DNA of 64,000 nucleotides. Source: Candidatus Kerfeldbacteria bacterium. GTDB taxonomy: Bacteria; Patescibacteriota; Patescibacteriia; UBA10025; JAHIVO01. The notes beneath the pieces were generated by a model. That model made no database searches. It had not been told where the DNA came from and saw only the letters and a list, made by a program, of their open reading frames with translations. The stretch lies in contig JACROE010000002.1 in NCBI GenBank assembly GCA_016214565.1, positions 792,007 to 856,006 of the forward strand, written 5' to 3'. Both the position numbers and the translations under genes were made by a program. Positions 41,565-47,357 of the stretch are shown piece by piece (the stretch's first letter is position 1; each line of letters begins with the position of its first letter).

Positions 41565-42008
41565 ATGGCAGATACATTACAATTTGAAATCATTACTCCG
41601 GACGGCACGGTTTTTTCTGAAGCAGTAGATGAAGTGGTGATTCCGACGCCGGATGGTGAAATTGGCATTCTACCGCACCATGTGCCGTTAGTGTCGCTGC
41701 TTCAGGCGGGCGAGGTGAGGATTAGAATTGGTGATGAGATTACCTTTTTAGCGGTTTCAAGCGGCCTACTCCAAGTGCATCCTGATAAGGTGGTAGCATT
41801 AGCAGATACAGCAGAGCGCGCAGAGCAGATTGACGAACAGCGTGCTGAGGAAGCGCGCACACGAGCTGCGGAGCTCATGGCGGACAAACGGGTTGACTCG
41901 GAAGAATTTGCCGCGCTGTCAGCCAAGATAGAAAAAGAATTAGCGCGACTACGAGTAGCAAAGCGCCGCACGACACGACGCGTCGACACCATCCGTCCAC
42001 AGTTATAA
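41565..42008 (+). CDS. atpC: ATP synthase F1 subunit epsilon
   Basis: LQFEIITPDG N-terminal beta-sandwich plus a C-terminal helical hairpin. Confidence 0.8.
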   Translation: MADTLQFEIITPDGTVFSEAVDEVVIPTPDGEIGILPHHVPLVSLLQAGEVRIRIGDEITFLAVSSGLLQVHPDKVVALADTAERAEQIDEQRAEEARTRAAELMADKRVDSEEFAALSAKIEKELARLRVAKRRTTRRVDTIRPQL

Positions 42009-42120
42009 ATTAGACACCAAGCTGTCAATTTCAAATCATGACACGGTTGACTCCGGGTACTCAAAGTCGCTACACTACGTGTATCCGCTATTTTATAGTT
42101 AGCATGGAGGATTATATATA

Positions 42121-43158
42121 ATGGTTGTCGAAATTCACATCAAGCCATCGCAGTGGTTGCCCGTGCTGGCCGTTCTTGGGTTACTGGTTGGAGGTTGGTA
42201 TGCTATTACTTATGACGTACAGCACTCCTCGATTGTGACGCCGACTGAATCATTGGTAAATCCGGACACGCTTGCCAAGAGGAATGCCTTGCCAGCTTCG
42301 GTTTCTATTCCCGCTTTGATGCAGCGTGAGTATACTGGCACTGATTTTATTTTGGGACCGACGCTGGAAAAAGGAGTGGGGTACAATCGATATTTCATGT
42401 CATATAATAGCGATGGTCTGACCATTACGGGTAGTATTGCTGTGCCGACCAGCGAAGGTTCGTTTCCTCTTGTTGTATTGAATCATGCGTTGGTTGATCG
42501 AGAGGCGTATAGAACCGGCGATGTATTAATAGCTGAGCAACGATATTTAGCACAACATGGGTATGTAGCACTTGTGCCTGACTATCGCAATCACGCTGGT
42601 TCAGATGACGACCCAAATGTTGATCGAGACCTTCGTTTTGGCTATGTCATTGACGTGATTAATGCTTTGCAAGCTGTCGAGCGAGCACAATTAGAATTTG
42701 TGGATACTGAACGAGTGGGTATGATCGGATATTCCATGGGCGCGGTGGTGGCGCTCGGCGTGGCAGTAGCACAGCCGGATTTGCTTGACGCTATTGTGCT
42801 CTATTCTCCAATCAGTGCTGATATGTGGGTTAATTACCAGCGCTGGATGGCGGATTTGCCGATCGCAAATGAAATTATTAAGCTATACGGAACCATTGAG
42901 TCGAATGAGAATTTTTGGGAAGAAGCGTCACCGGCTCATTACCTTGATAAGATTCTAGCGCCAATATTAATTCATCATGGTACCGCAGATACGTATGTGC
43001 CAATTTCGTTTTCAGAGGAATTAGTTATTGCTTTGAAAGCGGCGAATTCAATTCCTGTTGTATTTAATAAATATTTAGACCAAGGTCACGAATTTAATTC
43101 TGCTCATGATGAGGCGCTTGATCGCACGGTTAAATTTTTAGATGAGTATTTGAAGTAA
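42121..43158 (+). CDS. Alpha/beta hydrolase (S9 / dienelactone-hydrolase-like) with an N-terminal TM anchor
   Basis: GYSMGA nucleophile elbow and HHGTADTYVP near the C-terminus. Confidence 0.55.
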   Translation: MVVEIHIKPSQWLPVLAVLGLLVGGWYAITYDVQHSSIVTPTESLVNPDTLAKRNALPASVSIPALMQREYTGTDFILGPTLEKGVGYNRYFMSYNSDGLTITGSIAVPTSEGSFPLVVLNHALVDREAYRTGDVLIAEQRYLAQHGYVALVPDYRNHAGSDDDPNVDRDLRFGYVIDVINALQAVERAQLEFVDTERVGMIGYSMGAVVALGVAVAQPDLLDAIVLYSPISADMWVNYQRWMADLPIANEIIKLYGTIESNENFWEEASPAHYLDKILAPILIHHGTADTYVPISFSEELVIALKAANSIPVVFNKYLDQGHEFNSAHDEALDRTVKFLDEYLK

Positions 43159-43342
43159 ATAGATCTGACCACGACAAGAGGAAGACTGATATGTGTTCCG
43201 TTTTTTATATTTGACAGTGGGAGCTGTTAGATTCCTTGCCCCCACCCCTCTTGACAGCCAGTCGCAATAGTGAGAAGGTTACTTACTTTACCGCCCCCTT
43301 TTCAAAACAGCTCGTTTCAGAGCACAACTCGCCTAAAAGGAG

Positions 43343-43813
43343 GTGATGACGGTGGCAACACAGCATCATGCCAAACGTTCGAGATGGTCTCGGCTAGTAC
43401 ATACAACGTACAAATCTCGAGGCTGGTGGGTCGACTTTCCCACGCTTGCGCTGCTTGGGCTTTTTCACTGGCATTTTTACTCGAATGGCTTCCATGCCGT
43501 TCCTGATGAAGCGCCTGAATTCTGCTGGACCGTCCTGGTCATGTATCTCATGATCAAGGAAAAGGTTCGGTGGGAACATATGGAAATGCTCTCGCGACGC
43601 GGCAGTGTACTCGTCGGCTTCTGGATGTTCTCGGCGCTTGAATTTTTTGTGGTCATGGCATGGGATGGACATCATTTTCAAATGCCACCGCAAATGATTG
43701 CGACGACATTGATCGTACTCGGCGGTTTCGTCGGAGTGCTGCCCGTGAAGTATTACTTCACCAAGCGGTTCCCGAATGCCTCGGGTGCGTTCCAAGTCAG
43801 CCGAAACGACTAG
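43343..43813 (+). CDS. Hypothetical Trp/His-rich membrane protein
   Basis: AAAGGAGG Shine-Dalgarno; three or four TM helices; locally elevated GC; the antisense ORF 43394..43876 is rejected. Confidence 0.35.
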   Translation: MMTVATQHHAKRSRWSRLVHTTYKSRGWWVDFPTLALLGLFHWHFYSNGFHAVPDEAPEFCWTVLVMYLMIKEKVRWEHMEMLSRRGSVLVGFWMFSALEFFVVMAWDGHHFQMPPQMIATTLIVLGGFVGVLPVKYYFTKRFPNASGAFQVSRND

Positions 43814-43987
43814 ATTCACGCATGCTCTCTGGAATCCCGACGGATCCCAGAGAGCAATTTTATTGTATGATATCATGCCTTGACATGACCGCCGACGTCC
43901 GCTACAGTGAGCGGTACTTTTTGCTCCTTATCATTTGCATAAATGTAACGTGGGTATATTTCGTAAACCTTACTTTTTGGAGGATGT

Positions 43988-44230
43988 ATGACGGGTATTA
44001 TAGTTGCAGGTACAGAGTTTTTGATTGACTATGTGTTGCCGGGTGGTCGGTCGAGTGACGGGGTAAATCGAACGATTGCCACAGTTACCGAAGTGAATCC
44101 TGATGATTCAATCAGTGTCCGATCGGACGGTTTTCCGCAGCTCTGCAGATTGCGGAGTACCGGAGCGGGTTGGAGCGCTGTTTTTTCTGACCGGAATGAA
44201 ATACCGGTTGTTGCCTGCAAGTTGATCTAG
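43988..44230 (+). CDS. Hypothetical 80-aa protein
   Basis: TTGGAGGATGT then ATG; followed by the strong terminator 44258–44300. Confidence 0.4.
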   Translation: MTGIIVAGTEFLIDYVLPGGRSSDGVNRTIATVTEVNPDDSISVRSDGFPQLCRLRSTGAGWSAVFSDRNEIPVVACKLI

Positions 44231-44257
44231 CCGCTTGCCGCGGCTCATTTGTCTTCG

Positions 44258-44300
44258 CTCCTGGTGTGCATATGTGCATGCCAGGAGTATTTTTTATTTT
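44258..44300 (+). terminator. Rho-independent terminator
   Basis: Stem CTCCTGG/CCAGGAG around a palindromic loop, then TATTTTTTATTTT. Confidence 0.75.
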
Positions 44301-44398
44301 CTTGACAGCTATTGATCAATAGTATACTAATACTCGTATGTCATTATTTTCTATTTAGAGTACTGAAGCATTGTATCTTTTGAAAGAGAGGTTAATAC

Positions 44399-44656
44399 AT
44401 GGCAGGAGGTTCGTTCTTTGAGTGCCCGGTGTGCAATCAGTCGGTTCATGTTGGATCAAACGGTTTGTTTGATGAGCATGATAACAAAAGTGGTAAGCCA
44501 TGTCCCGGAGCAGGTCTCCGAGCACGAGGCGGGCCATCTAGTTTTCAGTCGCCGGGATTTCCGCGCAGCAATTTTCATTCAGGCCAGTACACTGGACCGC
44601 AACCGCGTCATCGTGGAAGAATTGGGTCAAAAGCCAGACGATTTAGAAATTGGTAA
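44399..44656 (+). CDS. Hypothetical 85-aa protein with a CPVC...C N-terminus and a basic, disordered tail
   Basis: AGAGAGG Shine-Dalgarno. It ends just before the terminator hairpin at 44679–44710, whereas the competing frame 44418..44756 reads through that hairpin. Confidence 0.35.
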   Translation: MAGGSFFECPVCNQSVHVGSNGLFDEHDNKSGKPCPGAGLRARGGPSSFQSPGFPRSNFHSGQYTGPQPRHRGRIGSKARRFRNW

Positions 44657-44771
44657 TAACCGATTTTGTGAATCTGTAGGCCGTTTCGTATGTGAAGCGG
44701 CCTCTTTTTTACAAAAAAAGAACCCCGTGGTCTATCACTCCACAGGGTCACCATAGCAATTCCCAACCATA

Positions 44772-44933
44772 TCACCGTTTACGACGCGGTGCCAGGACTA
44801 ACGGTAGTCCGACACCAATGAGCATGAGTGCGAGCGCGACTACTGGCATAAACCAGACGATTATGATTGCAACTGCAATCGAGACCCATCTGATGAGTAC
44901 CAGCCAGAGCGGCCGCCCACGTACTGTGGTCAT
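44772..44933 (-). CDS. Unannotated 53-aa two-helix membrane protein
   Basis: AAAAGGAGGTGATGGAC then ATG; sequence MTTVRGRPLWLVLIRWVSIAVAIIIVWFMPVVALALMLIGVGLPLVLAPRRKR. Confidence 0.35.
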   Translation of the reverse strand: MTTVRGRPLWLVLIRWVSIAVAIIIVWFMPVVALALMLIGVGLPLVLAPRRKR

Positions 44934-45062
44934 GTCCATCACCTCCTTTTTGGGTATTTGGCATGTCCATAGGTAAGTGTAGTCCTTTTAGTATACATGA
45001 TGCAAGGCATAGGATATGCATCAATTTTTTGATATACTGAGATCATCATTGAGAGAGTTTAA

Positions 45063-45848
45063 ATGTATATGGACAAAACTCGTCCCCCGCACTGGACTCC
45101 GCCAGCTGGGCATAAGTCAGAAATTGAGGGAACTTCGGCAATGGCGCAGAATGCTCAATCAGCGACCGAAAAACCAAAAAAGCACCATGGTTGGCTTATT
45201 TTCTTTGTCGTAGTGTTTTTACTCATTATTGGTATAGCTACTGCTGTGGCGGCTACGGGCGTCTATGCTGTTCCCGTCCTCACCGGGGTGTTTAAATCGG
45301 ATCAGCCGATTGATCTCGGCATTAGCAACGATCCAGCATATCTCGAAACGTTGTATGCGAAAGTACCGATGACTATTTCAAGTACGCGAACCAATTCGTT
45401 AGTGAATATGTTTGAGGGGCAGATAGATGTGCACATGCGCGGTACGTCCGAGGAGATTACGGCTTGGCTAACCCGGTTTGAAGGGGATAATCCTGCATTT
45501 AGTAACGTACAAGTAAATATGATTGAGGGCGGCATGGAAGTATCGGGCATAGTTAACGAATACATCCACGCGCCTGCCTATATCAAGGCTGGCGTAACAA
45601 TGTCCACAAATAAATCAATTGATCTTACTGTTGCGGCTGCAAAAATAGGTCGTGTATCAGTACCTCAGCATTATCTCGACGATGTTGAAAAATATTTTGA
45701 AGACCACATTAATGCGCAGATGGCTCGCACCGAAGGCTTTTCCATGGAAAAACTCGAATATCATTCTGGTTATAGTGATTTCGTTGGCACCTTGCCCGCA
45801 CGTGCATTTTCGCATGATCGCGGATGGAGTGCATTATTAATTGATTAA
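45063..45848 (+). CDS. Single-pass membrane protein with a ~200-aa extracytoplasmic domain; first gene of the heliorhodopsin operon
   Basis: TM helix (GWLIFFVVVFLLIIGIATAVAA); ends 10 nt before the heliorhodopsin start. Confidence 0.5.
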   Translation: MYMDKTRPPHWTPPAGHKSEIEGTSAMAQNAQSATEKPKKHHGWLIFFVVVFLLIIGIATAVAATGVYAVPVLTGVFKSDQPIDLGISNDPAYLETLYAKVPMTISSTRTNSLVNMFEGQIDVHMRGTSEEITAWLTRFEGDNPAFSNVQVNMIEGGMEVSGIVNEYIHAPAYIKAGVTMSTNKSIDLTVAAAKIGRVSVPQHYLDDVEKYFEDHINAQMARTEGFSMEKLEYHSGYSDFVGTLPARAFSHDRGWSALLID

Positions 45849-45857
45849 TTATTTATT

Positions 45858-46655
45858 ATGGATCAAATTCAACAATCAGCTGATCAATTGCAATTAAAGT
45901 TAAAGCGATTACGTCGGTTTAACATCATTATGGCTTTTTTGCACGCGGCTCAGGGCGCGGCTATGTTGCTATTGAGCTCTTCATTTTCACTTTCAGTAAC
46001 TAGCGCATTTGTACGGATGGACTTCGAATCCGGCAAGTTGCAGCCATATTTACAAACAGTTTTTGAACTTCCTATCGGGTTTTTGGTTGCGTGCTTCTTA
46101 TTTTTGTCTGCAATAGCACATGCGCTTATTTCATTTGTACCAGCTATTAGCGCCTGGTATAACCGCAATTTGCTCAAAGGGGCGAATTACGCACGATGGG
46201 TAGAGTACGCTTTTAGCTCATCGGTGATGATGGTGGTGATTGCCATGTTGGTTGGGATGTATGACGGTATCAGCTTGTTATTCATTTTCTTTCTCAATGC
46301 TATGATGATCCTGTTCGGTTGGATGATGGAGCTGCACAATCAAACCACCCCAAAAACAAATTGGACAGCATATATTTTTGGTTGTATCGCCGGTATTGTT
46401 CCGTGGGTTGGCGTTGGTATCTATTTGTTTGCGGCGGGTGAAGGGGATGCGAAAGCACCCACATTTGTCTATTGGATCTACTTTTCGATTTTTCTATTTT
46501 TCAATAGTTTTGCCGTTAATCAAGTATTACAGTATAAAAAAGTGGGGAAGTGGCAGGATTACCTGTATGGAGAGCGGGCGTATATTATCCTTAGCTTAGT
46601 TGCAAAATCATTATTGGCATGGCAGGTGTGGGCAGGGACACTGCGACCAGTGTAG
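45858..46655 (+). CDS. Heliorhodopsin
   Basis: 7-TM protein, collinear with heliorhodopsin 48C12. RWVEYAFSSSVMMVVIA carries the counterion Glu, with FGCIAGIVPWVGV and FLFFNSFAV. ERAYIILSLVAKSLLAWQVWAGTL has the Schiff-base Lys in TM7. Confidence 0.85.
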   Translation: MDQIQQSADQLQLKLKRLRRFNIIMAFLHAAQGAAMLLLSSSFSLSVTSAFVRMDFESGKLQPYLQTVFELPIGFLVACFLFLSAIAHALISFVPAISAWYNRNLLKGANYARWVEYAFSSSVMMVVIAMLVGMYDGISLLFIFFLNAMMILFGWMMELHNQTTPKTNWTAYIFGCIAGIVPWVGVGIYLFAAGEGDAKAPTFVYWIYFSIFLFFNSFAVNQVLQYKKVGKWQDYLYGERAYIILSLVAKSLLAWQVWAGTLRPV

Positions 46656-46658
46656 TCT

Positions 46659-47357
46659 ATGACAAAATATAATCATCAGTCAGTTCAAGCCACCGGCGCC
46701 TCCCTGCGCGAAATCGTATTTGGCATGGAGGATGGCATGGTTTCCACCCTGGGAGCGGTGACTGGCATCGCCATCGGCAGCCAGGATCATTTTATGGTGG
46801 TGATGGCCGGTATGGTTATTATAGCGGTTGAGTCTATTTCCATGGGTGTTGGTTCATATCTATCAAATCGTTCACAACAAGATCTTCATCATCGGGTACT
46901 GCACGAGGAACGTGAGGAAATTAAGGATTACCCCCATGAGGAGCAACACGAATTAAATCGGATGTTTATTCGAGATGGATGGCCGCCACACTTAGCCGAG
47001 CACATGACTGAAGTGGCAGCTAAGGATCGCCATCTTATGCTTCAGGAAATGGCGTATCGTGAATTAAACATTGCCGGCACTTCACATGGCACTCCAATTC
47101 GAAATGGTATATATATGTTTATTGCTTATGTGGTTGGCGGAATGGTTCCTTTGCTTGCATATTTATTAATGAGTGTTTCTCAGGCAATGCCCATTTCGAT
47201 TGTTGTCACCCTACTGGGATTATTCGGGCTGGGAGCGGCCACTACTCGATTGACGAAGGGGGGATGGTTTAGATCAGGACTACGCATCATGATTCTTGGC
47301 GGCTTGGCAATGGTGATTGGATTAGTCGTAGGTAATTTTGCAAAAGACCTTAAATAA
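46659..47357 (+). CDS. VIT1/CCC1-family Fe/Mn transporter
   Basis: LREIVFGMEDGMVSTLGAVTGIAIG N-terminal motif; five TM helices; starts 4 nt after the heliorhodopsin stop. Confidence 0.7.
   Translation: MTKYNHQSVQATGASLREIVFGMEDGMVSTLGAVTGIAIGSQDHFMVVMAGMVIIAVESISMGVGSYLSNRSQQDLHHRVLHEEREEIKDYPHEEQHELNRMFIRDGWPPHLAEHMTEVAAKDRHLMLQEMAYRELNIAGTSHGTPIRNGIYMFIAYVVGGMVPLLAYLLMSVSQAMPISIVVTLLGLFGLGAATTRLTKGGWFRSGLRIMILGGLAMVIGLVVGNFAKDLK

Follow-up and report, generated by a model that had tools for sequence, protein, structure and literature searches.

A gap beside the heliorhodopsin operon of a Kerfeldbacteria genome probably holds four independent small genes of differing age

Introduction

Phage 'morons', a concept that goes back to Hendrix and Juhala, are autonomous promoter-open reading frame (ORF)-terminator cassettes that lie between conserved genes. 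Here, we compare this and other described systems with four short genes, A153, B80, C85 and D53, in a 64,000-nucleotide stretch of the genome of a Candidatus Kerfeldbacteria bacterium (contig JACROE010000002.1, positions 792,007 to 856,006; the whole stretch is referred to as the window). The genes are located between an ATP-synthase/S9 hydrolase block and an operon of p261, heliorhodopsin (HeR) and a VIT-family gene. An earlier note on this DNA, made from the sequence alone, had taken them for an acquired accessory module, possibly related to toxin/immunity or host interaction. We consider it probable that they do not form one module, and that they are four independent monocistronic small genes of differing age.

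C85, and B80 less so, resembles a phage moron in being a small single ORF with its own promoter-like site (a pattern match) and its own intrinsic terminator. The C85 cassette is moreover placed between conserved genes that are adjacent in relatives, its presence varies among close relatives and its domain has phage kin. Unlike phage morons, it sits in a bacterial chromosome without surrounding prophage genes, its neighbours being ATP synthase, the S9 hydrolase and heliorhodopsin. The proteins of phrog_9824 (from the Bclasvirinae phages 39HC and Nigel) are similar to aa 1-41 of C85 and keep its Cys/His ligand pattern. However, they are about 50 aa long and consist of the domain alone, whereas C85 has 85 aa with an extra 44-aa basic disordered tail, and they are found in actinophages, whereas C85 is chromosomal in Patescibacteria. 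A153 has a four-helix module in common with a set of membrane-tethered winged-helix proteins (P0029, P0037, P0049, P0058, P0059, P0062, P0070 and P0073), together with the motifs K-E..RW, R.G..V..W and P..L; in contrast to these, A153 and its close kin (about 150 aa) stop about 20 residues past helix 4 and have no DNA-binding domain. Similar to type I and type II toxin-antitoxin systems and bacteriocin-immunity pairs, the locus encodes small hydrophobic or basic proteins without broad homology. Unlike in such pairs, there are no paired or overlapping genes, no antisense overlap and no model match, and the hydrophobic proteins are conserved and syntenic, not patchy. Heliorhodopsins have already been described in the Patescibacteria radiation (PMC9166423, PMC8612252).

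The finding is ordinary in kind, as it concerns lineage-specific small genes in a genome of the candidate phyla radiation (CPR). It bears on gene gain in a streamlined CPR genome of about 1.1 Mb, to which two autonomous mini-genes, one of them of phage type, appear to have been added in succession. It also offers leads, namely a four-helix membrane module with DNA-binding domains attached to it in other proteins and a micro-protein, D53 (with p261), that stays near heliorhodopsin despite rearrangement; the nested moron-like additions are a further, modest lead.

Results

Gene order in related genomes

In the window, the four ORFs are flanked by the stop of an S9/alpha-beta hydrolase gene (42121-43158; Peptidase_S9 in a Pfam scan, E 2e-20), with ATP synthase on that side, and by the gene for the 261-aa membrane protein p261, which is followed downstream by heliorhodopsin (45858-46655; PF18761, E 1.5e-97) and then by the VIT-family transporter gene. 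All four short genes listed in the earlier note are present there. A153 (43352..43813, plus strand) is a membrane protein rich in Trp and His, for which four helices are predicted; B80, the second gene (43988..44230, plus strand), is an 80-aa acidic soluble protein, predicted to be all-beta and known from two species only. C85 (44399..44656, plus strand) is the 85-aa CPVC protein with a basic tail of pI 12, and D53 (44772..44933, minus strand) is the 53-aa hydrophobic two-helix membrane protein on the opposite strand (pI 12, with positive charges at both ends). A, B and C thus converge on D.

Relatives were drawn from heliorhodopsin-anchored loci in 80 genomes, which place the window in the Patescibacteria, in line with a database protein identical to B80 (HZC01_04030) that is assigned to Candidatus Kerfeldbacteria. 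The closest relative (L004, JBMOKY010000001.1; AtpD 98%, AtpC 90% and HeR 79% identical to the window) has the order S9, A (83% identity), B (49-52%), D on the minus strand (72%), p261 (64%), HeR and VIT, with no C85. The more distant L081 (CAYQQN010000005.1; AtpD 85%, HeR 67%) has the order S9, A (66%), D on the minus strand, p261 and HeR, without B and without C. A and D are therefore adjacent and convergent in L081, B80 lies between their terminators in the window and L004, and the C85 cassette is found in the window only. A153 and D53 form an old core that was inherited vertically. Since B80 and then C85 came to lie between convergent terminators, the gap appears to have taken two successive moron-like additions. 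The earlier reading as an acquired accessory element may thus be kept for C85, and possibly for B80, while it fails for a module of four genes, as both relatives keep A153 and D53 at the same site, the closer one has B80 as well and neither has C85.

A three-way DNA alignment of the window, L004 and L081 delimited the window-specific cassette (about 410 bp, 44301..44710, plus strand), an extra block that holds the promoter, leader, ORF and terminator of C85. It runs from about 44301, after the T tail of B80, to the T tail of C85 at 44710, and both of its edges read TTTTTTA (44291-44297 and 44704-44710), which are the T tails of the two terminators. About 120 bp separate B80 from D53 in L004, where the B80 terminator leads directly to the D53 terminator, and in L081 A directly adjoins D without intervening genes. 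A terminator-to-terminator gap of this kind would be a permissive site, to which autonomous promoter-ORF-terminator units could be added without disturbing their neighbours.

The genes shared with relatives are under purifying selection. For A153, the ratio of nonsynonymous to synonymous substitution rates (dN/dS) was 0.12-0.16 for the orthologues at the same position, and 0.12 against L004. The proportion of nonsynonymous differences (pN) from L004 is 0.098 for A153, lower than for its less conserved neighbours S9 (0.25), p261 (0.22) and HeR (0.16). D53 gave a dN/dS of about 0.41 (window vs L004). The B80 orthologue (L004 and L090, a contig of the same species) gave a pN of 0.37, a pS of 0.73 and a dN/dS of about 0.19 with dS saturated, again in the comparison of the window with L004.

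B80 was not found in L081, a database search returned only the protein itself, and a metagenome scan returned only the L090 contig. A scan of viral contigs with B80 as a single query and a PDB sequence search returned nothing. An AF2 single-sequence model of B80 has six strands (pLDDT 71.7), and its comparison to PDB and BFVD with Foldseek gave nothing better than E 0.07, the top matches being PilZ-like and Tudor/SH3-like barrels. B80 would be a small cytoplasmic beta protein.

Transcription and translation signals

Successive small genes are separated by gaps of 115-174 bp, each with a terminator hairpin. Folding energies were compared with those of 200 shuffles. The strong terminators that the earlier note had located at 44258-44300 and 44679-44710 are real by both folding energy and shuffle test. 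The first, belonging to B80 (44257..44300, plus strand; hairpin 44257-44288), has a 14-bp stem (-23.8 kcal/mol, z -7.0) and the second, belonging to C85 (44678..44710, plus strand; hairpin 44678-44703), an 11-bp stem (-17.0 kcal/mol, z -4.3), each followed by a T run; none of the 200 shuffles folded equally well in either case. The C85 stop codon lies 22 nt 5' of its own terminator. Two further terminators were identified. That of A153 (43823..43866, plus strand; hairpin 43823-43856; -23.4 kcal/mol, z -4.5) is followed by AATTTTATT, and L004 has a hairpin of other sequence at the same position (-27.2 kcal/mol). That of D53 (44713..44749, minus strand; hairpin 44749-44721) reads ACCCTGTGG-N9-CCACGGGGT followed by the T run TCTTTTTTT and is kept in L004; it had escaped the terminator scan because its loop is 9 nt long.

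A putative promoter of A153 (43251..43279, plus strand) reads TTGACA-N17-GAAGGT, with a TG one base 5' of the -10 element. The same pattern occurs upstream of the L004 orthologue, with which the DNA block 43270-43798 is 80% identical. The promoter-like site of B80 (43880..43908, plus strand) reads TTGACA-17-TACAGT (10 of 12 matches in the scan), and the aligned position in L004 reads TTGACA-17-TAGAAT. The site of C85 (44302..44328, plus strand) reads TTGACA-N15-TATACT. Between its -35 and -10 elements lies a perfect 14-bp palindrome with a central GATC, CTATTGATCAATAG (44309-44322, plus strand), a candidate operator through which C85 may be regulated; its exact sequence occurs once in the 64-kb window, and the chance expectation with up to two mismatches is 0.26. 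With a promoter-like site and a terminator to each gene, the four would form separate monocistronic units and no operon, the putative promoters being pattern matches.

The earlier note had assigned a GGAGG-type Shine-Dalgarno (SD) site to each gene, which holds for A, B and D but not for C, where only GAGAGG is found. A and D carry an extended form, AAGGAGGTGAT. Their extended SD regions are nearly identical (AAAAGGAGGTGATG) and appear as a 24-nt inverted repeat (43325-43348 / 44937-44960) that brackets the four genes. This repeat was considered as a mobile-element boundary and rejected, as it consists of the two matching extended SD sequences. An Rfam scan of 42000-46000 at E<=1 found no RNA family in the region and one chance match (IS009) outside it. 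For A153, B80 and C85, leader folding did not exceed that of shuffles (z -1.8 to +0.3), so no riboswitch or thermosensor is indicated.

Base composition and codon usage

The elevated GC and foreign composition described in the earlier note were not borne out. The region has a GC content of 0.478, compared to a mean of 0.473 +/- 0.022 for same-size windows (60th percentile). The four ORFs have 0.50-0.55 GC (68th-91st percentile among same-size windows), above their immediate neighbours at 0.43-0.46 (S9 45%, p261 46%, HeR 43%). The 38 long ORFs of the window span 0.42-0.545, a range that takes in the four small ORFs, and the ATP-synthase genes have 0.50-0.52.

A codon-usage log-odds score trained on these 38 ORFs gave 0.25 +/- 0.08 for a typical gene, compared to 0.10 for A, 0.14 for B and 0.07 for D, all three above the off-frame range. 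C85 scored -0.07 (its tail -0.14), within the off-frame range, and is the sole clearly atypical gene of the four. By these measures, the supposed deviation disappears for GC and stands clearly for the codons of C85 alone. The low scores of A, B and D can be explained by unusual amino-acid content; in the case of A153, Trp/His-richness alone lowers such scores.

Several results weigh against four independent genes of differing age and against the roles proposed for them. The syntenic outgroup consists of two species only, and a gain of B80 in the window and L004 is indistinguishable from a loss in L081. The fold searches with B80 gave nothing significant, and AF2 modelled A153 with a pLDDT of 54, too low for use in a fold search. 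Neighbours of A153-family genes differ between contigs, so no functional partner can be named. The match of C85 to phage proteins is a 41-residue Cys/His motif for which tblastn E-values alone are weak (0.1-0.8). The codon scores of A, B and D (0.07-0.14) lie under the typical gene score and leave some compositional oddity, and the putative promoters and candidate operator are pattern matches.

A153 and its winged-helix relatives

A153 could start at 43343 or at 43352. The GTG at 43352 lies 8 nt after the GGAGG of the extended SD AAAAGGAGGTGAT, L004 is without an ATG at the upstream start, and the L081 protein starts at the residue aligned with the 43352 GTG. Because of this SD spacing and these alignments, the GTG at 43352 is favoured and the protein most probably has 153 aa. 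The membrane protein of 156 aa in the earlier note is thus Trp/His-rich as described, and shorter. Of its 153 residues, 8 are Trp and 9 are His (5.2% and 5.9%, compared to 1.4% and 2.1% in the long ORFs of the window), which is three to four times the local average. The note had extended the description to membrane proteins of the region in the plural, and it applies to A153 for both residues and to D53 for Trp (3 of 53) but not for His, of which D53 has none.

A low-confidence AF2 model of A153 from six sequences has four long helices, and hydropathy and charge distribution suggest that both the N and the C terminus are cytoplasmic. A PDB sequence search with the family profile gave only noise from G-protein-coupled receptors (E about 0.05). 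HMMER was run with the same profile over the full set of 1.84 billion cluster representatives. Only 75 scored E<=1e-3, and 20 of these reached E<=1e-10, which identifies A153 as a stand-alone member of a small family without a Pfam entry. Most members have about 150 aa, and the few with source names are from Patescibacteria or are unnamed metagenome proteins. Of the ten longer members that were scanned, eight have a C-terminal winged-helix domain (MarR_2, IclR, HTH_24 and similar). The close A153 family aligned to the set fused to a winged helix-turn-helix (wHTH) domain with 98.9% probability in hhalign (E 3e-17, 128 columns). A153 itself has about 20 residues after helix 4 with no Pfam match and is thus without a winged-helix domain; given the homology to the fused set, it is therefore the free-standing version of a membrane domain by which DNA-binding domains are tethered in other proteins. 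Because the module tethers such domains elsewhere, A153 is most likely a membrane-embedded sensing or partner-binding module, with conserved Trp/His predicted near the outer face.

Two family members (51% and 31% identical to A153; L087 782-1851 and L091 4302-5471) are each divergent beside a gene for an HSP20 small heat-shock protein. An alpha/beta-hydrolase or HSP20 was considered as a conserved partner of the family and rejected, HSP20 being present in two contexts only, and the 259-aa neighbour in L086 is unrelated to the S9 hydrolase. A 160-aa ORF antisense to A153 (43394-43876, minus strand) is spurious, as L004 has it in broken form and its codon score is 0.00. It is nonetheless called as a gene on an identical Logan contig (L084 1-291), which is a mis-call.

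D53, p261 and heliorhodopsin

D53 starts with the ATG at 44933, the counterpart of the start in L004; the GTG start of a 56-aa variant would lie over the SD. A conserved motif similar to RGRPLW stands at the N terminus of the protein, which also has G(I/V)G. Orthologues were found in L004 (72% identity), L081, L001, L002 and L003, which makes six species in all, and in six of six the distance from D53 to heliorhodopsin is no more than about 0.5-5 kb. The gene is transcribed divergently from the p261-heliorhodopsin-VIT operon in the window and from p261-HeR also in L004 and L081. p261 is a single-pass membrane protein encoded directly 5' of heliorhodopsin (within the block 45063-47357 of the window), and the gene of the VIT family (Fe/Mn transporter-type) begins 3 nt after heliorhodopsin. 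No Pfam, NCBIfam or PDB match was found for p261, and its homologues stand beside heliorhodopsin in eight loci (L001-L004, L007, L075, L078 and L081), which makes it a candidate heliorhodopsin partner. Predicted to be a two-helix hairpin, the micro-protein D53 probably acts in association with other membrane proteins, for which the p261/heliorhodopsin pair is the best candidate.

An invariant octamer, GGTTGGGA, is located just 3' of the D53 stop codon (44761..44768, minus strand) and occurs 5-35 nt past the D53 stop in all six orthologues (window, L004, L081 and L001-L003). In L003, it lies within the palindrome GTTGGGA-N10-TCCCAAC. In the D53 frame, it reads G-W-E/D in five of the six species, with no consistent ORF after it. 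D53 keeps a TGA stop in five of the six species, and TGA stops are rare in the window (1 among the 38 ORFs with 200 aa or more; 5 among the 61 ORFs with 100 aa or more, compared to 36 TAA and 20 TAG). UGA recoding, prompted by the rarity of TGA and the conserved in-frame GWE after the D53 TGA, was considered and rejected, as genes contain no in-frame TGA. A long 'read-through' ORF at 640-1743 proved to be two separate genes (Rce1-like and flavodoxin).

An alternative explanation of the locus is that D53 and p261 are dedicated membrane partners of heliorhodopsin and that A153, B80 and C85 are bystanders. We consider this unlikely, although it accounts for several observations. D53 is near heliorhodopsin in all six species, even in L001-L003, where D53 and p261 are at most about 5 kb from HeR, and where ATP synthase, S9, A153, B80 and VIT are no longer kept nearby; the p261 homologues accompany heliorhodopsin in the eight loci, and the divergent arrangement with p261-HeR recurs in the window, L004 and L081. 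However, all carriers of D53 are fairly close kin (HeR 67-80% identical), so that inertia alone may have preserved the linkage. Neither D53 nor p261 is present at most of the 80 heliorhodopsin loci, D53 takes varying positions and orientations with respect to HeR, and the partnership is proposed from gene position. A more ambitious version seems improbable to us: D53 and p261 would be dedicated HeR partners in a Kerfeldbacteria-like clade, with GGTTGGGA as a shared cis-regulatory site, and A153 would be a new membrane sensor module that makes one-component membrane-tethered regulators when fused to wHTH domains. If true, this locus would give a concrete way to study heliorhodopsin signalling in CPR bacteria.

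C85 and its reading frame

Under the preferred reading of four independent genes, C85 is one of the two younger additions and the one with phage kin. Its residues 1-41 form a zinc-ribbon-like domain (CPVC...EH...PC) that matched phrog_9824 in a PHROG profile search (E 3e-5); no other ORF had a PHROG match. The domain shares 42-43% identity with two Mycobacterium phage proteins of 51-52 aa, 39HC gp82 and Nigel gp77, and in comparison with these two phage members M1, CPVC, V16, V18, F24, E26-H27, N29, G32 and P34-C35 are invariant. Four viral contigs also carry the domain, while a scan of viral contigs with C85 as a single query returned nothing. The last 44 residues are rich in Gly, Pro, Ser and Arg and have no counterpart in the phage proteins, and among about 5.8 billion proteins the only homologue of C85 was itself. 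The combination of a zinc ribbon with a basic, disordered tail suggests a nucleic-acid-binding protein, and the cassette was probably acquired from a phage-like source.

The frame at 44399-44656, which the earlier note had left beside one at 44418-44756, is favoured because of the phrog_9824 match over aa 1-41, together with the phage alignment. A second alternative, that the cassette encodes no 85-aa protein and instead holds the 112-aa gene at 44418-44756, a non-coding RNA or a decaying remnant, is in our view highly doubtful. It would fit the codon score of C85 in the off-frame range (-0.07, tail -0.14, compared to 0.06 for the other frame), the perfect AGGAGG 7 nt 5' of the TTG start of the other frame and the lack of any homologue of C85 but itself. 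On the other hand, the 44418-44756 frame reads across two terminator hairpins and stops 50 nt past them, and searches of Pfam, NCBIfam, PHROGs and PADLOC gave no match to it at a threshold as loose as E<=1. The N-terminus of C85, in contrast, matches phrog_9824 with the CPVC/EH/PC ligand pattern of the phage homologues, and neither an Rfam family nor leader folding above shuffle level points to an RNA. For annotation, the analysis provides the C85 frame and the start codons of A and D and flags the antisense mis-call.

Signs of a mobile or toxin/immunity module

We confirmed that none of the four proteins has a recognisable family in Pfam, NCBIfam or PADLOC (0 PADLOC matches at E<=1). The toxin/immunity reading, in turn, found no match in these collections and no paired or overlapping genes, and a tightly coupled, co-transcribed or antisense-overlapping pair of the toxin-antitoxin type was not present. 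The window contains no tRNA and no meaningful repeats, the four ORFs contain no mobility domains, and a repeat search of the flanks returned only TTTTTTA from the two terminator tails. Absence from close relatives at the same site, as in a genomic island, was found for the C85 cassette and for none of the other genes. That the four genes are a single horizontally acquired accessory module (toxin/immunity or host interaction) is thus extremely unlikely: the proteins are small, membrane-associated and without family, the GC of the ORFs is somewhat above that of their immediate neighbours, codon scores are below average and the region is dynamic (the window is without two atpC-S9 genes of L004 and L081 and gains C85), but A and D are kept in place in L004 and L081 at dN/dS 0.12-0.41, the region lies at the 60th percentile of GC, terminators stand between four transcription units, no toxin, immunity or defence family was matched and no tRNA, integrase or island-type repeat is present.

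Other observations on the locus

No paralogue of any of the four genes was found within the window. Positions 43529-45584 of the window are matched at 100% identity by a Logan contig from SRR12113395, which thus comes from the same organism. The gap between atpC and S9 (42009-42120) measures only 112 bp in the window, while L004 (5857-6657) and L081 (4079-4809) carry two extra genes there, one encoding a carbonic-anhydrase-like Pro_CA_2 protein of 140-145 aa and the other being an ORF of 81-90 aa. This difference is a further indel in the same neighbourhood as the small genes.

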